DNA of 64,000 bases from Escherichia coli (GCF_050920415.1 NZ_CP169309.1); one strand, 5' to 3'; shown: positions 1 through 42,674, counted from the first letter of the stretch. The notes: generated from the sequence alone by a model not told the origin. Made by a program: numbers and translations.

Positions 1-2
1 CG

Positions 3-1061
3 AGTGATGATGCATCCGGCTATCTGGATTTTTTCAAAGGCGAGATAGGAAAAACCCATCTGGCTCAGGAGCTGTGGACGCAGATTGATAACGGTCAGCT
101 GGCGCCTGATCTGGCTGAAATCAGGACGTCCATTACGGATGTCAGCAATGAAATCACACAGACCGTCAATAAGAAACTGGAAGACCAGAGTGCGGCAATT
201 CAGCAGATACAGAAGGTTCAGGTTGATACAAATAATAACCTGAACAGCATGTGGGCTGTGAAGCTGCAGCAGATGCAGGACGGACGCCTTTATATCGCGG
301 GTATTGGTGCCGGTATTGAGAACACCCCTGACGGCATGCAGAGTCAGGTGCTGCTGGCGGCGGACAGGATTGCGATGGTTAATCCTGCGAATGGCAACAC
401 AAAACCGATGTTTGTTGGTCAGGGCGATCAGATATTCATGAACGACGTGTTCCTGAAGCGCCTGACGGCCCCCACCATTACCAGCGGCGGCAATCCCCCG
501 GCCTTTTCCCTGACACCGGACGGAAAGCTGACGGCTAAAAATGCGGATATCAGTGGCAGTGTGAATGCGAACTCCGGGACGCTCAACAACGTCACGATTA
601 ATGAGAACTGTCAGATTAAGGGGAAACTGTCAGCCAATCAGATTGAAGGCGATATTGTCAAAACAGTGGGTAAGGCTTTCCCGCGGGACTCCCGGGCACC
701 GGAGCGGTGGCCATCAGGGACCATTACCGTCAGGATTTATGACGATCAGCCTTTTGACAGGCAAATTGTTATTCCAGCGGTGGCATTCTGCGGCGCTAAA
801 CATGAGCGGGAGAATAACGATATTTATTCGTCATGCCGCCTGATAGTGAAGAAAAATGGTGCTGAAATTTATAACCGTACCGCGCTGGATAATACGCTGA
901 TTTACAGTGGTGTTATTGATATGCCAGCTGGTCACGGCCACATGACGCTGGAGTTTTCGGTGTCAGCATGGCTGGTAAATGACTGGTATCCCACAGCAAG
1001 TATCAGCGATTTGCTGGTTGTGGTGATGAAGAAAGCCACCGCAGGCATCAGTATCAGCTGA
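3..1061 (+). CDS. Phage host-specificity / central tail fibre protein J, C-terminal part (5' end cut by window edge)
   Basis: Frame is open from position 3 to the stop at 1061; the translation resembles the lambda gpJ C-terminal region as recalled, and lom follows as in lambda. Confidence 0.8.
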
Positions 1062-1127
1062 ATTTTATAACCCCAATACGGGCGCCAGAAATGGCGCTTT
1101 TTTATTGCAGAAAAGCGAGAGGTAATT

Positions 1128-1727
1128 ATGCGTAAATTATGTGCTGTTATTCTGTCTGCAGTAGTCTGGCTGGTCGCCGCTGGTACGCCAGCGAGTGCAG
1201 CAGAGCATCAGTCCACACTAAGCGGCGGGTATCTTCAGTCCCATACTGATATGCCCGGAAACGATGACCTGAAGGGCATTAACGTGAAATACCGTTATGA
1301 ATTTACGGACACGCTGGGGCTGATTACGTCATTCAGTTATGCCAACGCTGAAGATGAGCAAAAAACGCATTACAGCGATACCCGCTGGCATGAAGATTCC
1401 GTGCGTAACCGCTGGTTCAGCGTGATGGCGGGGCCGTCTGTGCGCGTGAATGAATGGTTCAGCGCGTATGCGATGGCGGGTATGGCTTACAGCCGTGTTT
1501 CGACTTTCTCCGGAGATTATATCCGCGTAACTGACAACAAGGGGAAAAAGCACGATGTGCTGACCGGAAGTGATGACGGTCGCCACAGCAACACGTCTCT
1601 GGCGTGGGGGGCTGGCGTGCAGTTTAACCCGACCGAATCCGTGGCCATTGATATTGCTTATGAAGGCTCCGGCAGTGGTGACTGGCGCATTGACGGTTTC
1701 ATCGTGGGTGTCGGTTATAAATTCTGA
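1128..1727 (+). CDS. lom: Lom/Ail-family outer membrane beta-barrel protein (phage-encoded)
   Basis: 199 aa ORF with a signal peptide ([24 protein letters not shown]), aromatic C-terminus (GYKF), Shine-Dalgarno GAGAGG upstream, and position after J as in lambda. Confidence 0.85.
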
Positions 1728-1754
1728 TTAGCCAGGTAACACAGTGTTATGACA

Positions 1755-1781
1755 GCCCGCCGGGTTCAGGCGGGCTTTTTT
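1755..1781 (+). terminator. Rho-independent terminator after lom
   Basis: GC hairpin gcccgcc-gggttca-ggcgggc followed by a T-run. Confidence 0.6.
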
Positions 1782-1792
1782 GTGGGGTGAAT

Positions 1793-3883
1793 ATGGCAGT
1801 AAAGATTTCAGGTGTCCTGAAGGACGGAGCGGGTGAGCCTGTCGTAAACTGTGCGATTGAATTGCGTGCCAGAAGAACCAGTCCGACAGTTGTGGTTAAT
1901 ATTGTGGCAACCTGTCTTACGGGAAGTGATGGTGGGTATACTATTAATGCTGAGCCGGGATTTTATGATGTATTTTTGTCCCGCTCAGGGCATCCTCCTG
2001 TAAAGGCGGGGGAAATTTATGTTGCACCGACAGATGAGCCGGATACGCTGAATGCTTTTCTGGATGCACCAAAGGAGGGTGATTTACGCCCTGAGGTAAT
2101 GAAGCGTTTTGAGGAAATGATAAATACCGTTTTTCGCTTGTCTGAGCAGGTGGTCAGTGACAGGGAGAGAGCAGAAACAGCTGCTGATGATGCAATCAAT
2201 GCAGCAACATCTGCGGCGGTTAGTAAGGATGAGGCAGAAGAGCTAAAAAATCAGACACAGCAGAGCGCCGAAGCTGCAGCCGGAAACGCACAGCAGACGG
2301 CACAGGATGTGACGACAACCGCAACGGCCCGTGATGATGCGGAACGTTTTGCGGGTGAGGCAGAAAACAGCGCACAGTCATCAGGCACATCGCGGGATGA
2401 ATCAGTCGATGCCGCCGAACGTGCCCGCCTTTATCATAATGCCGCATCATCAGCTGCAACCAGCGCGGAAAATGCAGCAAATGCTGCACTCGGGCATGAA
2501 AATAACGCTGCCGAATACGCCCGACAGGCTAAAGACAGCCAGGATGCAGGTGCAGACAATGCGCAGGAAGCGAAACAGTACAGGGATGAGGCGCAGCAGA
2601 TAGTTGATGACCTGAATGCAACAAATGCCAGCACGACAGAAAAAGGTCTGGTGCAACTGTGTAGTGATACGGACAACGACAGCGATGAACTGGCTGCCAC
2701 GCCAAAGGCTGTCAAAGCCGTCATGGACGAAACGAAAACAAAAGCGCCACTGGACAGCCCGGCCTTCACCGGCACCCCAACCACCCCAACCCCACCGGAT
2801 GATGCCGCCGGTCTGGAAGCAGCGAACGCAGCGTTTGTGCGCAAACTGCTTGCTGCGCTGGTTGGCTCATCGCCGGAAGTTCTGGACACCCTGAACGAGC
2901 TGGCAGCGGCGCTGGGCAATGACCCGAACTTTGCGACGACAATCACAAACGCGCTGGCAGGCAAACAACCGCTTAATGACGTCTTAACGGCAATCAGCGC
3001 ACTGACGCAACGGGCAGATAATCTTCTGTACTTCAATACGGACGGGAATGCCTCACTGTCTCCGCTGTCAGAGAAGGCCCGCGCATTACTGGCGCATGAC
3101 ACGGCTGAAGCCATGCGCACGGAGCTTGAGCTGAACGCGGCTGCGACGATGGAACCCCAGAGTGATATCCGTGACCGCACACCGGGCAGGCTGGCCCTGT
3201 CCGGGATGTATGGGTTTGGACAGGCATTCACCAGCGCCGAAGCTCTGTCATTTAACGGACAGGCTGATTTCGTTATATGGCTGCAGACAGTCACCCCGGG
3301 GCGTTATGCGGTCAGTATTGCGGACTCCTCCACGCTGCTGAAGGGGACCACGAAATTTAACGGTATCATTGATGTGATGTGGTCACCGTCTGATAACGAC
3401 GAATCAGACACGGCGCGTAAATTCAAAACGCTGCTGTACTACAACCAGTATTACGAGGATGAGCACAGCATACATTGTATGCGTTATCGCTACAGTGGTA
3501 ACAGCTGGAATGCAACATCAAGCCTTATTGTGTATGACGGCAACTCCCTGGCATATCTGATGTCCTCAACCGCCGGTAATGGTCCGTTCTCATATTACAA
3601 ATACCCGGCCGTCGGTGTGCCGATAATGGCGGTATATCAGGGAGAAAGTTTTGGTGAAAATGCTTCTCTGGGACTCGGTGATACTGTGCCGGGTTCCCGT
3701 CTTGGTCCTCTGGCCATGAGTGCACAGGTTAGTGATACAGGGACATACGCATCCTCACCGCAGGTTGTGATTGGCGGTGCCGGTGAATACAACTTCCCCG
3801 GTCGTTACACGGCGCTTTCGGGCCTGGGTAACAATTATGGTACTCAGCGTGGCTTTATCGGTCTTTTTGTACGCATTGAGTAA
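1793..3883 (+). CDS. stf: Side tail fibre protein Stf (intact, about 696 aa)
   Basis: N-terminus MAVKISGVLKDG matches the lambda Stf start as recalled; Ala/Glu-rich repetitive middle region; divergent C-terminal receptor-binding part. Confidence 0.8.
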   Translation: MAVKISGVLKDGAGEPVVNCAIELRARRTSPTVVVNIVATCLTGSDGGYTINAEPGFYDVFLSRSGHPPVKAGEIYVAPTDEPDTLNAFLDAPKEGDLRPEVMKRFEEMINTVFRLSEQVVSDRERAETAADDAINAATSAAVSKDEAEELKNQTQQSAEAAAGNAQQTAQDVTTTATARDDAERFAGEAENSAQSSGTSRDESVDAAERARLYHNAASSAATSAENAANAALGHENNAAEYARQAKDSQDAGADNAQEAKQYRDEAQQIVDDLNATNASTTEKGLVQLCSDTDNDSDELAATPKAVKAVMDETKTKAPLDSPAFTGTPTTPTPPDDAAGLEAANAAFVRKLLAALVGSSPEVLDTLNELAAALGNDPNFATTITNALAGKQPLNDVLTAISALTQRADNLLYFNTDGNASLSPLSEKARALLAHDTAEAMRTELELNAAATMEPQSDIRDRTPGRLALSGMYGFGQAFTSAEALSFNGQADFVIWLQTVTPGRYAVSIADSSTLLKGTTKFNGIIDVMWSPSDNDESDTARKFKTLLYYNQYYEDEHSIHCMRYRYSGNSWNATSSLIVYDGNSLAYLMSSTAGNGPFSYYKYPAVGVPIMAVYQGESFGENASLGLGDTVPGSRLGPLAMSAQVSDTGTYASSPQVVIGGAGEYNFPGRYTALSGLGNNYGTQRGFIGLFVRIE

Positions 3884-3897
3884 TGAGGAAATCAGGC

Positions 3898-4470
3898 ATG
3901 AAAATCAGAGCGGTGAAAGGCATCAGAAACGCACATTATCTTGAAAATGGTGCGGTTGACTGCGAGGTGTTATTTGAAGGTGAAACGGAGTTCGCCCTGT
4001 ATACTGCCATACAGGATGATATGGCCCCGACAGGCCAGCATGTCTGGCAGGAGCTGCAAAGCGGGAAATGGGGCGAAATCGCCCCGTTCACCGTCACGCC
4101 GGAACTTATTGCAGCGGCAAAGGATGCCAAAAGGCGGGAAATTGAGGCATGGCGCGACAGTCAGGAAAACGTTGAGTTTATTTTCACGTTTGATGGCCGT
4201 CGTTTTGATGGCGGAAAAACCTCGCAGTCACGCCTTGCGCCCGTGGTTGCAACAGCGCAGGCCGGACTGCTTCCGGAGGGTTTTTTCTGGACTGATGCGG
4301 ATAATAACAACGTCGTACTGACCAGGGAGAAACTTATTGCGCTGAACGATGCCATGATGGTGGCCATGGTGGCGGAGGGCTTTAAAATCCACGAACGCCA
4401 GCGCGAGATGAAGGAACAACTGAATAATCTGAATGACTTGGCTTCAATTCGAGCGCTTGACGTTACGTAA
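3898..4470 (+). CDS. Putative tail fibre assembly/chaperone protein (Tfa-like by position; sequence diverged from lambda Tfa)
   Basis: About 190 aa ORF immediately after stf, with a TAATGA stop/start overlap at 3881-3885 and a GAGGA ribosome-binding site before the ATG at 3898; assignment is by position and size only. Confidence 0.45.
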   Translation: MKIRAVKGIRNAHYLENGAVDCEVLFEGETEFALYTAIQDDMAPTGQHVWQELQSGKWGEIAPFTVTPELIAAAKDAKRREIEAWRDSQENVEFIFTFDGRRFDGGKTSQSRLAPVVATAQAGLLPEGFFWTDADNNNVVLTREKLIALNDAMMVAMVAEGFKIHERQREMKEQLNNLNDLASIRALDVT

Positions 4471-4489
4471 TAAAAATCACTGATATGCC

Positions 4490-4620
4490 AGCCCCTTGTA
4501 AAGATATTGATCAGGGTTGTTTTGATGTGAATTAGATTTACATGGGGTGCTTTGGGGCATGTATGGGACAGAAATGTCTGTTTTGGGACATTTTGGGGCA
4601 TGGTTGGGACACTATAACAC
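4490..4620. repeat. Cluster of short direct repeats (tggggcatg x2, tgggaca x3) near the prophage end; possible integrase arm-type sites
   Basis: Repeated motifs visible at 4541-4612 between tfa and the yecE junction. Confidence 0.3.
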
Positions 4621-4713
4621 ATACGAACTTAACCGAATTTCGTATGGTGTTAATTTTTAACGTGTTGAATACACTAGAGAAAGCGAATGCTCTTGGGCGT
4701 TCTTTAGTGATTT

Positions 4714-4824
4714 TTAAAATAGTCCTGTCATGCAGTTAAAGTGGCGGGCATACTCTTCAAGGCTGGTGATCCCCAACCGCACCCATTTAGGATGCGACCA
4801 TTGTGGCAGACCGATGTAAATCAT
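4714..4824 (-). pseudogene. yecE: yecE 5' fragment (DUF72 protein) truncated by prophage integration
   Basis: Minus-strand ATG at 4824 overlaps the yecD stop (ATGA); translation [31 protein letters not shown] then runs into unrelated sequence and stops at 4714. Confidence 0.55.
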
Positions 4825-5387
4825 AATGCGTTGAGGATCTCTTCCACACTGCGCACACGGGCGATGCGTGGGTAGATATGGTTGATGCTGTTATTATGCT
4901 GCTCAGCGCTGGCGGCGCTGCAGGCGTCTTCGGCAATCACCAGATTAAAACCAAGTTCCCAGGCATTGCGGGCGGTGGATTCAACACCGATATTGGTCGA
5001 GATCCCACATAATACTATTGTATCGATACCCCGGCGGCGTAATTGCAACTCCAGATCCGTACCGTAAAACGCACCCCATTGACGTTTGATGATTTCAATA
5101 TCGCTGTCTGTTGCACCCAATGCAGCAGGATGTTGCCACCAATTTTCGGGCAACACTTTAGCGGGGGAGGGGGCATCAACCGGCTGTTTTAATGCTTCGG
5201 CGTAATCGGTAGACCAACCAACGCGCACCAGAAACACGGGCTGACCGTTCGCGCGAAATTTCGCCGCCAGCTTCCCTGCTCGATTAACCACCTCATCGGC
5301 AGTATGAGGACCACCGGCAAAAGGTAAGATGCCTTCTTGTAAGTCAATTACCACCAGCGCAGTGGTATTAGCATTCAGTTCAAGCAT
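4821..5387 (-). CDS. yecD: Isochorismatase-family hydrolase YecD
   Basis: 188 aa ORF recognised as E. coli YecD; position next to aspS. Confidence 0.9.
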
Positions 5388-5696
5388 ATTGTCTCCTGAT
5401 AAAACAAAATCGTGCCTCTCACCTTAATGCGATTAGCCGATGGCGGAACGACAATTTTTGTTAATTTTTATGAGTTCGGGCAACACCTTTATAGCAAACT
5501 GGCGTAGAGTCTGATTTCAGGCCCGATATAAAGTGGTAACGAGGCGTTCCAGCGCGGGCCAGGCTCTTACGGTGCGGCAGAATTTCCAGTATAATAGCCG
5601 CCTTTTTTCATTCAGTTGTGACATACAGCTAACGCTGCGACTTGGTCACCTGCGCAGCAGGGGGCATCCGCCGGCAGCTAAGTTAAGGGATATCTC

Positions 5697-7469
5697 ATGC
5701 GTACAGAATATTGTGGACAGCTCCGTTTGTCCCACGTGGGGCAGCAGGTGACTCTGTGTGGTTGGGTCAACCGTCGTCGTGATCTTGGTAGCCTGATCTT
5801 CATCGATATGCGCGACCGCGAAGGTATCGTGCAGGTATTTTTCGATCCGGATCGTGCGGACGCGTTAAAGCTGGCCTCTGAACTGCGTAATGAGTTCTGC
5901 ATTCAGGTCACGGGCACCGTACGTGCGCGTGACGAAAAAAATATCAACCGCGATATGGCGACCGGCGAAATCGAAGTGCTGGCCTCCTCGCTGACCATCA
6001 TCAACCGCGCAGACGTTCTGCCGCTTGACTCTAACCACGTCAACACCGAAGAAGCGCGTCTGAAATACCGCTACCTCGACCTGCGTCGCCCGGAAATGGC
6101 TCAGCGCCTGAAAACCCGCGCTAAAATCACCAGCCTGGTGCGCCGTTTTATGGATGACCACGGCTTCCTTGACATCGAAACTCCGATGCTGACCAAAGCC
6201 ACGCCGGAAGGCGCACGTGACTACCTGGTGCCTTCTCGTGTGCACAAAGGGAAATTCTACGCACTGCCGCAGTCTCCGCAGCTGTTCAAACAGCTGCTGA
6301 TGATGTCCGGTTTTGACCGCTACTATCAGATTGTAAAATGCTTCCGTGACGAAGACCTGCGTGCTGATCGTCAGCCTGAATTCACCCAGATCGATGTGGA
6401 AACCTCTTTCATGACCGCGCCGCAAGTGCGTGAAGTGATGGAAGCGCTGGTACGCCATTTGTGGCTGGAAGTGAAGGGCGTGGATCTCGGTGATTTCCCT
6501 GTAATGACCTTTGCGGAAGCAGAACGCCGTTATGGTTCTGATAAACCGGATCTGCGTAACCCGATGGAACTGACTGACGTTGCCGATCTGCTGAAATCCG
6601 TTGAGTTCGCGGTATTCGCAGGTCCGGCGAACGATCCGAAAGGCCGCGTTGCTGCTCTGCGTGTTCCGGGTGGCGCATCGCTGACCCGTAAGCAGATCGA
6701 CGAATACGGTAACTTCGTTAAAATCTACGGCGCGAAAGGTCTGGCGTACATCAAAGTTAACGAACGTGCGAAAGGTCTGGAAGGTATCAACAGCCCGGTA
6801 GCGAAGTTCCTCAACGCTGAAATCATCGAAGCCATCCTGGATCGTACTGCCGCGCAAGATGGCGATATGATTTTCTTCGGTGCTGATAACAAGAAAATTG
6901 TTGCCGACGCGATGGGCGCATTGCGTCTGAAAGTGGGTAAAGACCTTGGTCTGACCGACGAAAGCAAATGGGCACCGCTATGGGTTATCGACTTCCCGAT
7001 GTTTGAAGACGACGGTGAAGGCGGCCTGACGGCAATGCACCATCCGTTCACCTCACCGAAAGATATGACGGCGGCAGAGTTGAAAGCTGCACCGGAAAAT
7101 GCGGTGGCGAACGCTTACGATATGGTCATCAATGGTTACGAAGTGGGCGGTGGTTCTGTGCGTATCCATAATGGGGATATGCAGCAGACGGTGTTTGGTA
7201 TTCTGGGGATCAACGAAGAGGAACAGCGCGAGAAATTCGGCTTCCTGCTCGACGCCCTGAAATACGGTACTCCGCCGCACGCAGGTCTGGCATTCGGTCT
7301 TGACCGTCTGACCATGCTGCTGACCGGTACCGACAACATCCGTGACGTTATCGCCTTCCCGAAAACCACGGCGGCAGCGTGTCTGATGACCGAAGCGCCA
7401 AGCTTTGCTAACCCGACTGCTCTGTCCGAGCTGAGCATTCAGGTTGTGAAGAAGGCAGAGAATAATTGA
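5697..7469 (+). CDS. aspS: Aspartyl-tRNA synthetase
   Basis: 590 aa ORF with class II aaRS motifs, recognised as AspRS. Confidence 0.97.
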
Positions 7470-9240: not shown

Positions 9241-9843
9241 TTATACCGCCTCGGTCAATTCAGGCTGAGGCGTTTCTACTCCCTCCGCATGAATCAACAC
9301 CAAACCCGGATGATGCCACAAACTGGCTGGTGTTACGGTTTTACGCTCCCACGGAATCGAACCTAAAAACCAGAATTTCCAGAAAGTGAGTTTTGCGTTC
9401 GGATTGCTATTTAGCAGTTCTCCAAACGTCTCTATTTCACCCACCGGAATACATAACGCCTCTTTATAAATATCAAAAACGAATTTTGAGCAGAACTGGC
9501 GGGAAGATTCGTATTTAAAGCCGGTGTGGTAGAGCTTATGCAACCGTCCGGGGACCTTTTCGACCAGAGCAAGTTTTTGCTCTGCGGTTAAACCTCCTGC
9601 GAGGCGGCGAACACCGTAGCGTTGATCGGTCGACCGTTCAATAAATCGTGACAAAGTTGTGATTGTGGAGAGCGGAACTCGACTCTCCGCAACCAGGTAA
9701 TCATCACCGTCATGTCCGATGATTATCCCCACATGGTTGCTCCAGCATTTCGAGGCTGCAGAGATTTGCCCAAACAGGCGAGCACCGATGCAGGTAAAAA
9801 CAATATCACCGGTTTCATATTTAACTGGGTAATTTATTTTCAC
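9241..9843 (-). CDS. yebB: YebB (DUF830, permuted papain-like fold family)
   Basis: 200 aa ORF recognised as YebB; convergent with ruvC. Confidence 0.88.
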
Positions 9844-9936
9844 TATATCAATCCATTATTTATATATAAAACAGCATCTATCTTTCGTGATGGTAAAGCA
9901 TTAGCATTGTATTGTAATCATGACAAGGAATGTTTT

Positions 9937-10575
9937 ATGCGGTTATTTATTAATGTGATAATTATAGTTTCGATCAGTCAATGCGTGAATGTATTTGCTC
10001 AAGATAATGTCATTCGCTATCCCTGGCGATATGGACGTATTTCTTTAAATGAGAATAATGAGTTTGTGCCTCAAATTATTCATATGCGTGATGATATCTA
10101 CGGCGTGGGTGAAGCTGGTGCAAGCCTTAACGATGCGAGAATGGCGCAAAGTGGTGTCACCGTGAGGCTTAGCGTTATACAGCAGGGGCAGGTGGTGAAT
10201 GCTTTACTGGATTTCTACAATAGCAATAATCAACCTGCTTATATATTTGAAGGTGGTTTGATGCCTTGCAATAAAGCCTTTGACATCACAACAAGCAACA
10301 TTGTCCTTGATGGGATGTGTGGAATTTATGATGGGGTCGATGGCTGGCAAGTTATTCCTGCGGGTGAGCATTATAAAGAATCGTTTTCACTCACTCAGGC
10401 TTTTGAATTCTTGCCGGGAAAACATCATTATAAAATTAATGCCGGAAGTTTTATCATCAGAGTCGGGGATGATATTTTTGCAAGAGAAGATGCCGAAAGC
10501 ATTCTTTTTGATTTGATTAACTGGCGATATGGCTATGTGCAAAAAGTTATGAAAGGGTGTCGAAGGGGGATTTGA
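9937..10575 (+). CDS. Hypothetical secreted protein (212 aa, low-GC islet)
   Basis: ATG at 9937 with AAGGAA ribosome-binding site 7 nt upstream; predicted signal peptide MRLFINVIIIVSISQCVNVFA; low-GC coding sequence (about 40% by eye); no family recognised. Confidence 0.6.
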   Translation: MRLFINVIIIVSISQCVNVFAQDNVIRYPWRYGRISLNENNEFVPQIIHMRDDIYGVGEAGASLNDARMAQSGVTVRLSVIQQGQVVNALLDFYNSNNQPAYIFEGGLMPCNKAFDITTSNIVLDGMCGIYDGVDGWQVIPAGEHYKESFSLTQAFEFLPGKHHYKINAGSFIIRVGDDIFAREDAESILFDLINWRYGYVQKVMKGCRRGI

Positions 10576-10760
10576 TGGCAGGATATTATGCTCTGTATGA
10601 ATACTCAGGCGCTGACATAATTGATGAGTATGATATTTACTCAAACCAGGTCTCGATTGATCTTAATGGTGACGAGTTAGCGCATACGGAGTCATATCAG
10701 TGGCGTATTGATAGTGGAATGATCCCGCAAAAATTCAGCGTTCAGGGACTCGCTGAATGA
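10575..10760 (+). CDS. Hypothetical small acidic protein (61 aa), translationally coupled to the upstream gene
   Basis: TGATG stop/start overlap at 10573-10577 and a purine-rich ribosome-binding site (AAGGGGGA); Asp/Glu-rich composition. Confidence 0.45.
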   Translation: MAGYYALYEYSGADIIDEYDIYSNQVSIDLNGDELAHTESYQWRIDSGMIPQKFSVQGLAE

Positions 10761-10797
10761 TTAGTCCTCTACCTGCTTGCCAGATACAGAGGCGCGG

Positions 10798-35510: not shown

Positions 35511-35750
35511 ACATTTAAGCTGATGACCACCACGCTTTTTATTGACCATTTTGCACGCAAACTGGAAAACCTGGCGTCGTCATCTATTCTTAAAGGGCAA
35601 GGCAACTAAGCCTGCATTAATGCCAACTTTTAGCGCACGGCTCTCTCCCAAGAGCCATTTCCCTGGACCGAATACAGGAATCGTGTTCGGTCTCTTTTTA
35701 TCTGTTAAAAGCCAGAAGCATTCCCTTCGCTGACTTTATAGTCAACCATA
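35470..35750 (-). ncRNA. ryeA: sRNA RyeA (SraC), antisense to SdsR
   Basis: Known antisense partner of SdsR in the pphA-yebY intergenic region; ends are approximate. Confidence 0.4.
35598..35700 (+). ncRNA. sdsR: sRNA SdsR (RyeB), RpoS-dependent
   Basis: Sequence gcaaggcaactaagcctgcattaatgcc ... ggaccgaatacaggaatcgtgttcggtctcttttt matches SdsR as recalled, with terminator hairpin and T-run at 35666-35699. Confidence 0.75.
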
Positions 35751-41293: not shown

Positions 41294-42545
41294 GTGCATC
41301 CCAAAGTAAGCGGCTGTCCAGCCATTCCACAGCAAGAATAGTCAAAATTACCGCTGCGCCGAAATAAAACGCAGCCGGTCCCATAGTAAAAGCGAGGATC
41401 TGATCGCGATTAATTAGCGACATGGTTAAAGATATGACAAACAGGTCGAGCATCGACCAGCGACCGATCCAGGTCACCATCCGCAGTAACAGAATCCGTG
41501 TGCGTAAACCTTGCTGGCATTTAAAATGAATGCTCAACAGTAAAGTGAACATGACGATCACTTTGGTAAATGGCACCAGAATACTGGCGATAAACACGAT
41601 TCCGGCGACCGCAATGTTGCTACTTGCCAGCGACATAATCCCGGAAAGAATCGTATCTTCCTGCCGGCCACCATTCAGATAAATGATAGAAATAGGTAAC
41701 AGGTTGGCAGGTAACAACAACACGATTGATGCTAACAGCGCCGCCCAGCACTTTTGCAGACTATGACGGCGACGCAGGCGTAGCGGGATATGGCAACGCG
41801 GGCAGCGACCACGCTGATCGGGATAGCCGGTAAAATGGCATCCCAGGCAGACACGAAGTTTCTCGTCCCTACGCGTAGCGGGGCGCTGTGGATAAAATCG
41901 CGCCCACAGTTCCTCGACATTAAGATGTGACAACGTCACCGTGGTCAATATCACTAATGCAACAAAAGAGAACAGACCAATACCCGCCTGAATGTGCGCA
42001 TAATCCTGCACCTTTATAGAAGCAACGCCAATACCGACCAGATAGATGTCCAGCATCACCCACTCTTTCAATCGCTCAAGCATCAGCAGTACCGGGCGTA
42101 GATTCATTCCCAGTCGGTTACCAAACCATAAATAAGCTATGGAGGTCACCAGAATAAGGGGGGCACCAATAACGCAAAAAAAGACCATCGCCCCCGTTAT
42201 TGCATCGCCCTGTTTGGTCATTTGCCAGATGCCTTGCATGACATTGGCGTCAATACGAATACCTAACAGCCAGATATGCAACAGCGGTTCGCCCCAGGCA
42301 AACGGCATCAGCAACAGCATGGTGAATGCCATTGCTGCCAGGCGCGTTAGCGACCAGTCGCGCCCGTCACGAATTTTTGCCTGACAGCGCGGACAATAGG
42401 CACTTTGATGAGAGTTTATCTCGGGTAGGCTAAACAGCATGTCACATTGCGGGCAACGTTGGTAATCACCACGCGGCAGTTCCTCGCCAATTGCCCTCAC
42501 TGTTATCTTTTTTGTCGGCGTAATTTGTGGTGTGTTAAGAGCCAT
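41262..42545 (-). CDS. letA: Inner membrane protein LetA (YebS), PqiA family
   Basis: 427 aa with zinc-ribbon-like CxxC pairs and multiple TM helices; its 3' end overlaps the letB start. Confidence 0.9.
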
Positions 42546-42674
42546 GACGTGCCAAATGTAATAAGAATTAACATTAATCTTAACCCATGATGGGAATGAT
42601 CTTGAGCATTAACGCATTTAATGCTTATTTTAATAGGCTGGCAGTTCCAGGTAAGACAACCAAGTGATTATATA

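Follow-up and report, generated by a model that had tools for sequence, protein, structure and literature searches.

Sequence evidence for a lambda-like prophage inserted in yecE of Escherichia coli, probably by a phiP27-type integrase

Introduction

The Shiga toxin (Stx) 2e-converting phage phiP27 (AJ298298 / NC_003356) targets the Escherichia coli gene yecE, and its GenBank record annotates both of its prophage attachment sites, attL and attR, as the same 11-bp sequence, CACGCAGTTAA. A review counts yecE among the insertion sites of Stx phages, citing the phiP27 paper (PMC8065619), and in O145:H28 strains the gene is occupied by Stx1a, Stx2a and Stx2d phages as well as by non-Stx phages (PMC8112680); it is this use by Stx phages that gives the site its practical interest. 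Here, we have examined positions 1-4824 of a 64,000-nt stretch of E. coli DNA (GCF_050920415.1 / NZ_CP169309.1), the whole of which we refer to as the window. In all likelihood, positions 1-4739 belong to a lambda-like prophage of siphovirus type and form its right (attR) end, the insertion in yecE having been made by a tyrosine integrase of the phiP27 type.

Lambda provides the natural point of comparison for the genes. Its attR lies past the tail-fibre genes, and its core is built from inverted half-sites around a 7-bp overlap, with additional repeats in the arms. The window resembles the right end of lambda (J-lom-stf-tfa-b region-attP) in its gene order and in the families to which J, Lom and the N-terminal part of Stf belong, but the integrase and att specificity of lambda is for the gal-bio attB, whereas the prophage studied here lies in yecE. 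The position of the Caudo_TAP gene tfa is taken in the window by a gene encoding a DUF4376 protein, and in place of a lambda-type b region there are 262 bp between this last gene and the core. phiP27, in turn, shares with the window its target and a nearly identical core, but its record contains sheath and baseplate genes together with stx2e, whilst the tail genes J, lom and stf of the window are of lambda type. An integration module of the phiP27 type is thus joined here to a lambda-like morphogenesis module, which makes the prophage a mosaic.

The yecE phages of O145:H28 (P12 type, with a 21-bp att; Nakamura et al. 2021, PMC8112680) use the same insertion point in yecE but are more distant in other respects. 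Their integrase shows about 71% nucleotide identity, their arm is about 52% identical outside the 45 bp proximal to the core, and they carry genes for type III secretion system effectors or DinI beside attR, which the window does not.

Results and discussion

The junction and the attachment core

The original prediction had the lambdoid prophage interrupting yecE after about 31 codons, with the junction somewhere within 4730-4740. Translation of the minus strand and a three-way alignment of the K-12 attB, the attR in the window and the attL of the closest relative bear out this point of insertion, and the elements that had been listed were all found where they had been placed, almost base for base (Table 1). 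Read on the yecE strand, the sole block common to attB, attR and attL is TTAACTG, which corresponds to CAGTTAA at 4733-4739 and lies inside the interval that had been estimated. In the relative's attL, host CCTCCACA is followed by CAGTTAA and then by phage CATGACGGG, and the attP reconstructed from the two junctions reads CCTGTCATG-CAGTTAA-CATGACGGG, in which inverted 9-bp half-sites flank 7 bp. Such an arrangement is the usual core layout of tyrosine integrases, with lambda as the textbook case. The reconstruction is confirmed by a viral contig (L010) in which the joined sequence runs uninterrupted from the arm across the core to the int side, and which thus contains attP itself.

The core in the window, CATGCAGTTAA at 4729-4739, matches the phiP27 att CACGCAGTTAA at 10 of 11 bases and occupies the same position in yecE; the mismatch is a CATG in the window where phiP27 reads CACG. 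Insertion at this sequence within yecE codons 28-32, a mark by which we recognise the phiP27-type module, is thus what is found here. The similarity extends well beyond the core, with window 4548-4739 aligning to phiP27 42384-42575 at 88% identity over 192 columns. When the arm in the window was joined to the int-side arm of the relative and compared with a phage collection, phiP27 matched the int side at 98%, starting exactly from the core, and the int gene of the closest relative's prophage shares 98% nucleotide identity with that of phiP27.

To place the junction in a wider context, we compared a 430-bp query spanning it with 5,426 complete E. coli genomes. All but one were matched (5,425 of 5,426), most of them aligning only from 4729-4733 rightwards, with yecE intact, whilst in 317 the alignment took in 80% or more of the query and thereby extended into the phage arm. 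The attR junctions of O145:NM and O103 strains also align to the core in the window.

These observations would be explained if the phage attP (CCTGTCATG / CAGTTAA / CATGACGGG) recombined with the matching sequence at yecE codons 29-31, strand exchange presumably taking place within the 7-bp overlap. The insertion would have split yecE, leaving a 31-codon stub coupled to yecD and placing a 241-codon remainder beside int, beyond the window, and the far end of the prophage would then be expected to hold CATGAC..GTTAACTG followed by yecE codons 32-272. That yecE was instead broken by a deletion, an insertion sequence (IS) element or a rearrangement, with phage DNA adjoining by coincidence, is hardly credible. 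Nothing specific supports such an origin, the attL being beyond the reach of the window alone. Against it, yecE is broken precisely at the att core given in the phiP27 record, and the 190 bp alongside show homology to the attR arm of that phage. The junction also recurs in strains of O103:H2 and O145 and in numerous viral contigs, and the reciprocal attL is present in relatives.

Table 1. Coordinates of the features at the prophage end and in the adjoining chromosome
Feature	Position	Strand	Basis and remarks
Tail-tip/host-specificity gene J, C-terminal 353 codons	1..1061	+	Open frame 3; lambda_TipJ match; gpJ in relatives
lom, Ail/Lom family outer-membrane beta-barrel protein, 199 aa	1128..1727	+	PHROG 108; RefSeq in relatives
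Side tail fibre gene (stf-like), 696 aa	1793..3883	+	PHROG 2636; alternative GTG at 1787
DUF4376 protein, 190 aa	3898..4470	+	Pfam DUF4376; PHROG 1141; alternative ATG at 3883 (190-195 aa)
Integrase-distal arm of attachment site, 262 bp	4471..4732		phiP27 homology 4548-4732; G+C
Five direct TGGGRCA repeats	4553..4611	+	Starts 4553, 4564, 4584, 4594, 4605
Imperfect palindrome CATACGAACTT-n5-AATTTCGTATG	4620..4646		Repeat search and homologous arms
Conserved block TGGGCGTTCTTTAGTGATTTTTAAAA, 26 bp, beside core	4694..4719		IMG/VR matches; attR arm alignment
attR core region	4724..4748		attB/attR/attL alignment
Phage half-site CCTGTCATG	4724-4732	+	Part of attR core region
7-bp identity block CAGTTAA	4733-4739	+	Common to attB, attR and attL
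Host half-site AGTGGCGGG	4740-4748	+	Part of attR core region
yecE 5' stub	4714..4824	-	31 native codons (4824-4732), then MTGLF from phage DNA; stop 4716-4714
yecD, intact, first chromosomal gene right of the prophage	4821..5387	-	RefSeq in relatives

The attachment arm

The arm between the last gene and the core has a G+C content of 38.5%, compared with about 52% on both sides of it, and contains several elements that may serve as protein-binding sites. The five TGGGRCA repeats share one orientation and are spaced 11, 20, 10 and 11 bp apart, and they form two 20-bp units (TTTGGGGCATGnnTGGGACA), both of which are kept in phiP27. The exact sequence TGGGACA occurs three times in 48 bp here; over the rest of the 64-kb window, with both strands counted, it occurs six times. 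The repeats are kept in the arms of phiP27, O103:H2 and many viral contigs, and the int-side arm of the relative has two further copies, which fall within the 3' end of int. In a variant form, the copies in both arms of L010 read TGGGGCA. These repeats are probably arm-type sites for the N-terminal domain of the integrase, and remain candidates in that role.

The imperfect palindrome retains its symmetry in homologous arms through paired changes, for example CATATGAA..TTCATATG and CACATGAA..TTCATG, and the conserved block beside the core is nearly invariant, being matched in 35 IMG/VR loci, either exactly or with one base variable, and kept in all five of the attR arms aligned. Both elements probably represent candidate sites for accessory bending or excision proteins. 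An integration host factor consensus occurs in the arm as a single, weak site with one mismatch (4658-4670, minus strand), and a perfect match to WATCARNNNNTTR (AATCAGTAAGTTA) was read by eye in the relative's int-side arm, beyond the window.

A perfect 11-nt inverted repeat (TAAAAATCACT / AGTGATTTTTA, at 4471-4481 and 4706-4716) also brackets the arm, one copy standing directly after the stop codon of the DUF4376 gene and the other in the core-proximal block; none was seen in phiP27.

An open reading frame (ORF) of 65 aa at 4542-4739 (plus strand), equivalent to 'L58' of phiP27 and ending on the TAA of the att core, was considered as a gene and rejected. The frame is open in E. coli-type arms, even in one at 52% identity, but of 30 distinct viral-contig arms that keep the DNA motifs, 11 have it shortened to 24-33 codons. 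Compared with phiP27, 17 of 64 residues differ for 23 nucleotide changes, which suggests that there is no constraint at the protein level, and the frame most probably reflects the conservation of DNA sites rather than of a protein. Scanning of 3800-5700 for promoters and terminators gave sites no more frequent than in shuffled sequence, and tRNA and Rfam scans of 1-4824 gave no matches.

The arm and core together are present in 35 viral contigs (IMG/VR L010, L039, L041 and others within L011-L044). Beyond the core, some of these continue into int-side sequence, as attP, and others into yecE-like sequence of varying divergence, a distribution which suggests that this integrase family may target yecE in several enterobacterial hosts.

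The tail genes

Profile matches uphold the identification of J, lom and stf in the original prediction of a lambdoid tail-fibre end. J is read in frame 3, which stays open from base 3 as far as the stop codon at 1059-1061, the 5' part of the gene lying beyond the window, and the product matches positions 807-1163 of the 1163 in the NCBIfam model lambda_TipJ (the last 357; E=5e-169). The score is below the full-length cutoff of this model only because the window edge cuts the gene. Directly downstream of J, the lom product matches PHROG 108 'Lom outer membrane protein' over its full length (positions 1-199 of 199, E=6.6e-106).

The side tail fibre gene, which is apparently intact, matches PHROG 2636 'tail fiber protein' across positions 1-568 of 568 (E=4e-179), and in RefSeq relatives, where it is named 'prophage tail fiber N-terminal domain-containing protein', it starts at the ATG equivalent to 1793. 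Residues 1-92 match PDB 9e7m 'Tail fiber protein' (E=4e-21), and Stf is homologous to the phiP27 tail fibre L56 at its N-terminus and in its C-terminal domain (32% and 28% identity, respectively). At the DNA level, close matches to stf among sequenced phages end at about 1833. The presence of the C-terminal part of J, of lom and of the N-terminal domain of Stf indicates that this region belongs to a lambda-like tail-tip/side-fibre module. Window 1-4167 is also 96-97% identical to prophages that lie at another chromosomal position in other strains.

The last gene had been described as tfa-like, which is a reasonable account of its role but not of its family. The Pfam scan gives DUF4376 alone (PF14301; E=2e-19, residues 78-185), and membership of the lambda Tfa family (Caudo_TAP) was rejected; a BLASTP comparison with an unverified lambda Tfa sequence was also not significant (E=0.06). 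The gene nonetheless sits directly after stf, where tfa would stand, and its product is 54% identical in amino acid sequence to L57 of phiP27, which is likewise the final gene ahead of attR, such that the pairing of a fibre gene with a DUF4376 gene recurs in phiP27 as L56/L57. For gp27 of Alteromonas phage V22, also a DUF4376 protein, a new type of intermolecular tail-fibre chaperone has been identified by the authors of that work, whose assignment covers V22 gp27 only (PMC7289586, PMC10579305). The protein encoded in the window shares with V22 gp27 the C-terminal position of the DUF4376 domain and a gene directly downstream of that for the fibre, and it probably acts on the fibre as a chaperone or in an accessory role. 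A search for solved structures related to it by sequence found none.

The closest relatives and the state of the prophage

As the original prediction held, the rest of the prophage lies beyond the window, and two strains with the same tail-fibre end were examined for what it may contain. In MFDS1022581, the prophage at yecE (NZ_CP169399.1, ~2110150-2156430) is about 46 kb long. From 534 to ~35700, through the junction and into the chromosome, the sequence of this strain is identical to that of the window, as it is again over 35669-60400; its stf, DUF4376 gene, arm and yecE stub are the same as those in the window. In the orientation of the window, its layout runs from the yecE remainder through int, xis, early genes, an IS66 insertion, lysis genes and lambda-like head and tail genes to J, lom, stf, the DUF4376 gene and the yecE stub. 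GB089 (NZ_CP013663.1) is 96.4% identical and has a similar prophage layout, with HK97-like head genes and an IS66 insertion. In these relatives int and xis are adjacent and both are intact.

The 40 single nucleotide polymorphisms (SNPs) that separate the window from MFDS1022581 are confined to 176-533, within J, and bases 1-171 cannot be aligned, a pattern which points to a recombination breakpoint in J near 533. This divergence upstream of 533, which leaves room for differences from the relative in the left part of the prophage, is among the points that weigh against our interpretation of the locus. Others are that the integrase, attL and the remainder of the prophage fall beyond the window, the type of the integrase and the completeness of the prophage being read from a near-identical relative, that the core differs by one base from the phiP27 11-mer, and that the roles given to the arm repeats are candidate assignments made from sequence.

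It comes close to an even chance, though falling somewhat short of one, that the prophage is a defective remnant which can no longer excise and that the window shows only a fossil attR. The prophage in MFDS1022581, whose sequence is identical over 534-4739, has decayed: besides the IS66 insertion, its tape-measure gene is broken into two incomplete parts and frameshifts affect J, U and lysis genes, and GB089 carries the IS66 insertion too. On the other hand, the window keeps open frames throughout the 353 codons of J and in lom, stf and the DUF4376 gene. The relatives, for their part, have an intact int and xis, and in GB089 J and the tape-measure gene are likewise intact. Decay of this kind would in any case concern the present activity of the element rather than its origin, and is compatible with insertion by a phiP27-type integrase.

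Whether the prophage could be an Stx-converting phage, with stx located just to the left of the window, was also considered. The original prediction named yecE as a site used by some such phages, in agreement with the phiP27 (Stx2e) record, which has the same core, and with the review (PMC8065619) and the O145:H28 phages (PMC8112680). The gene hosts Stx1a, Stx2a, Stx2d and Stx2e phages, and the prophage of the relatives contains relics resembling the late region of Stx phages, including a partial DUF1737 gene. However, no stx is annotated in the yecE prophage of either MFDS1022581 or GB089, the two closest relatives examined, and between the late-regulator region and the lysis genes these carry instead a copy of IS66, a TerB gene and an IraM gene, which makes an Stx phage at this locus improbable.

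The fate of yecE

The original prediction described yecE as truncated, and the 31-codon stub that it named is indeed present, but a simple truncation does not describe what has happened to the gene. The yecE ATG at 4824 overlaps the yecD stop codon as ATGA, and the stub is given in RefSeq, for the relatives, as an incomplete DUF72 pseudogene. Codons 32-272 are also found in the relatives, where they adjoin the integrase some 46 kb away. Judging by these strains, yecE is split and not deleted.

In the relative's attL, the yecE frame runs through phage sequence (..HKRPIKISKLVFNTRHVNC) into VEGNTTLY.., and the only canonical in-frame start of the remainder is the GTG of native codon 32, which gives a 241-aa ORF and which, by eye, has no Shine-Dalgarno sequence upstream. 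RefSeq gives the remainder in the relative as a 256-aa product with ATT as its first codon. Since the remainder lacks a canonical start accompanied by a ribosome-binding site, and lacks the conserved N-terminus, yecE has very probably been inactivated by the insertion.

Use of the yecE site

To estimate how often this site is occupied, we compared a 240-bp query centred on attB with the same 5,426 complete genomes. The query was uninterrupted in 4,903 of these, so that attB is interrupted in approximately 10%. The strain from which the window derives falls among the roughly one in ten sequenced E. coli in which the yecE phage site is taken, and this adds little beyond annotation. The feature is an ordinary one, a known kind of element at a known site with nothing new about it, and an essentially identical copy of the prophage end is already annotated in RefSeq. 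The anatomy of the attachment site, with its 7-bp block, inverted half-sites, phased TGGGRCA repeats and palindrome, could however be used to mark yecE occupancy precisely.

A related junction is found at a different locus. The PPompW prophage at ompW in O145 strain RM12522-C8 (L009 2880-3245) holds at its right end a copy of a whole attR-like junction, comparable with window 4548-4827, in which the yecE 5' stub is 87% identical, as published, and the phage arm across the core is 76% identical. The published origin of this element, 'attB-in-PP_1', is yecE alone. Homology on both sides of the core would fit the capture of a whole attR, for example through aberrant excision, and not that of a piece of an intact yecE. 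We consider the chances evenly balanced that attR junctions of this phage family, comprising arm, core and yecE stub, were the source of 'attB-in-PP_1' in the PPompW prophages of Shiga toxin-producing E. coli. If this is the case, then ordinary attR scars can move into other phages and serve there as landing pads for Stx phages.

Other features of the window

Elsewhere in the window, three ORFs (287, 61 and 194 aa) lie at 9712-11382 between yebB and ruvA; they are hypothetical proteins in MFDS1022581, and none of them matched a PADLOC defence model. A gene for an IS621-family (IS110-like) transposase occupies 13449-14429, between ruvB and znuB. Relative to MFDS1022581 it has one G fewer in a run of G at about 14187, giving an ORF of 250 aa, and this loss may be either a real frameshift or a homopolymer sequencing error.

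MFDS1022581 differs from the window strain in having a Rac-like prophage of about 42 kb after yebY, which the window strain does not. At 35559-35703 in the window, the SraC/RyeA and SdsR/RyeB small RNA locus follows yebY and is contiguous with the next chromosomal genes, and it is exactly at this locus that the Rac-like prophage of MFDS1022581 sits.

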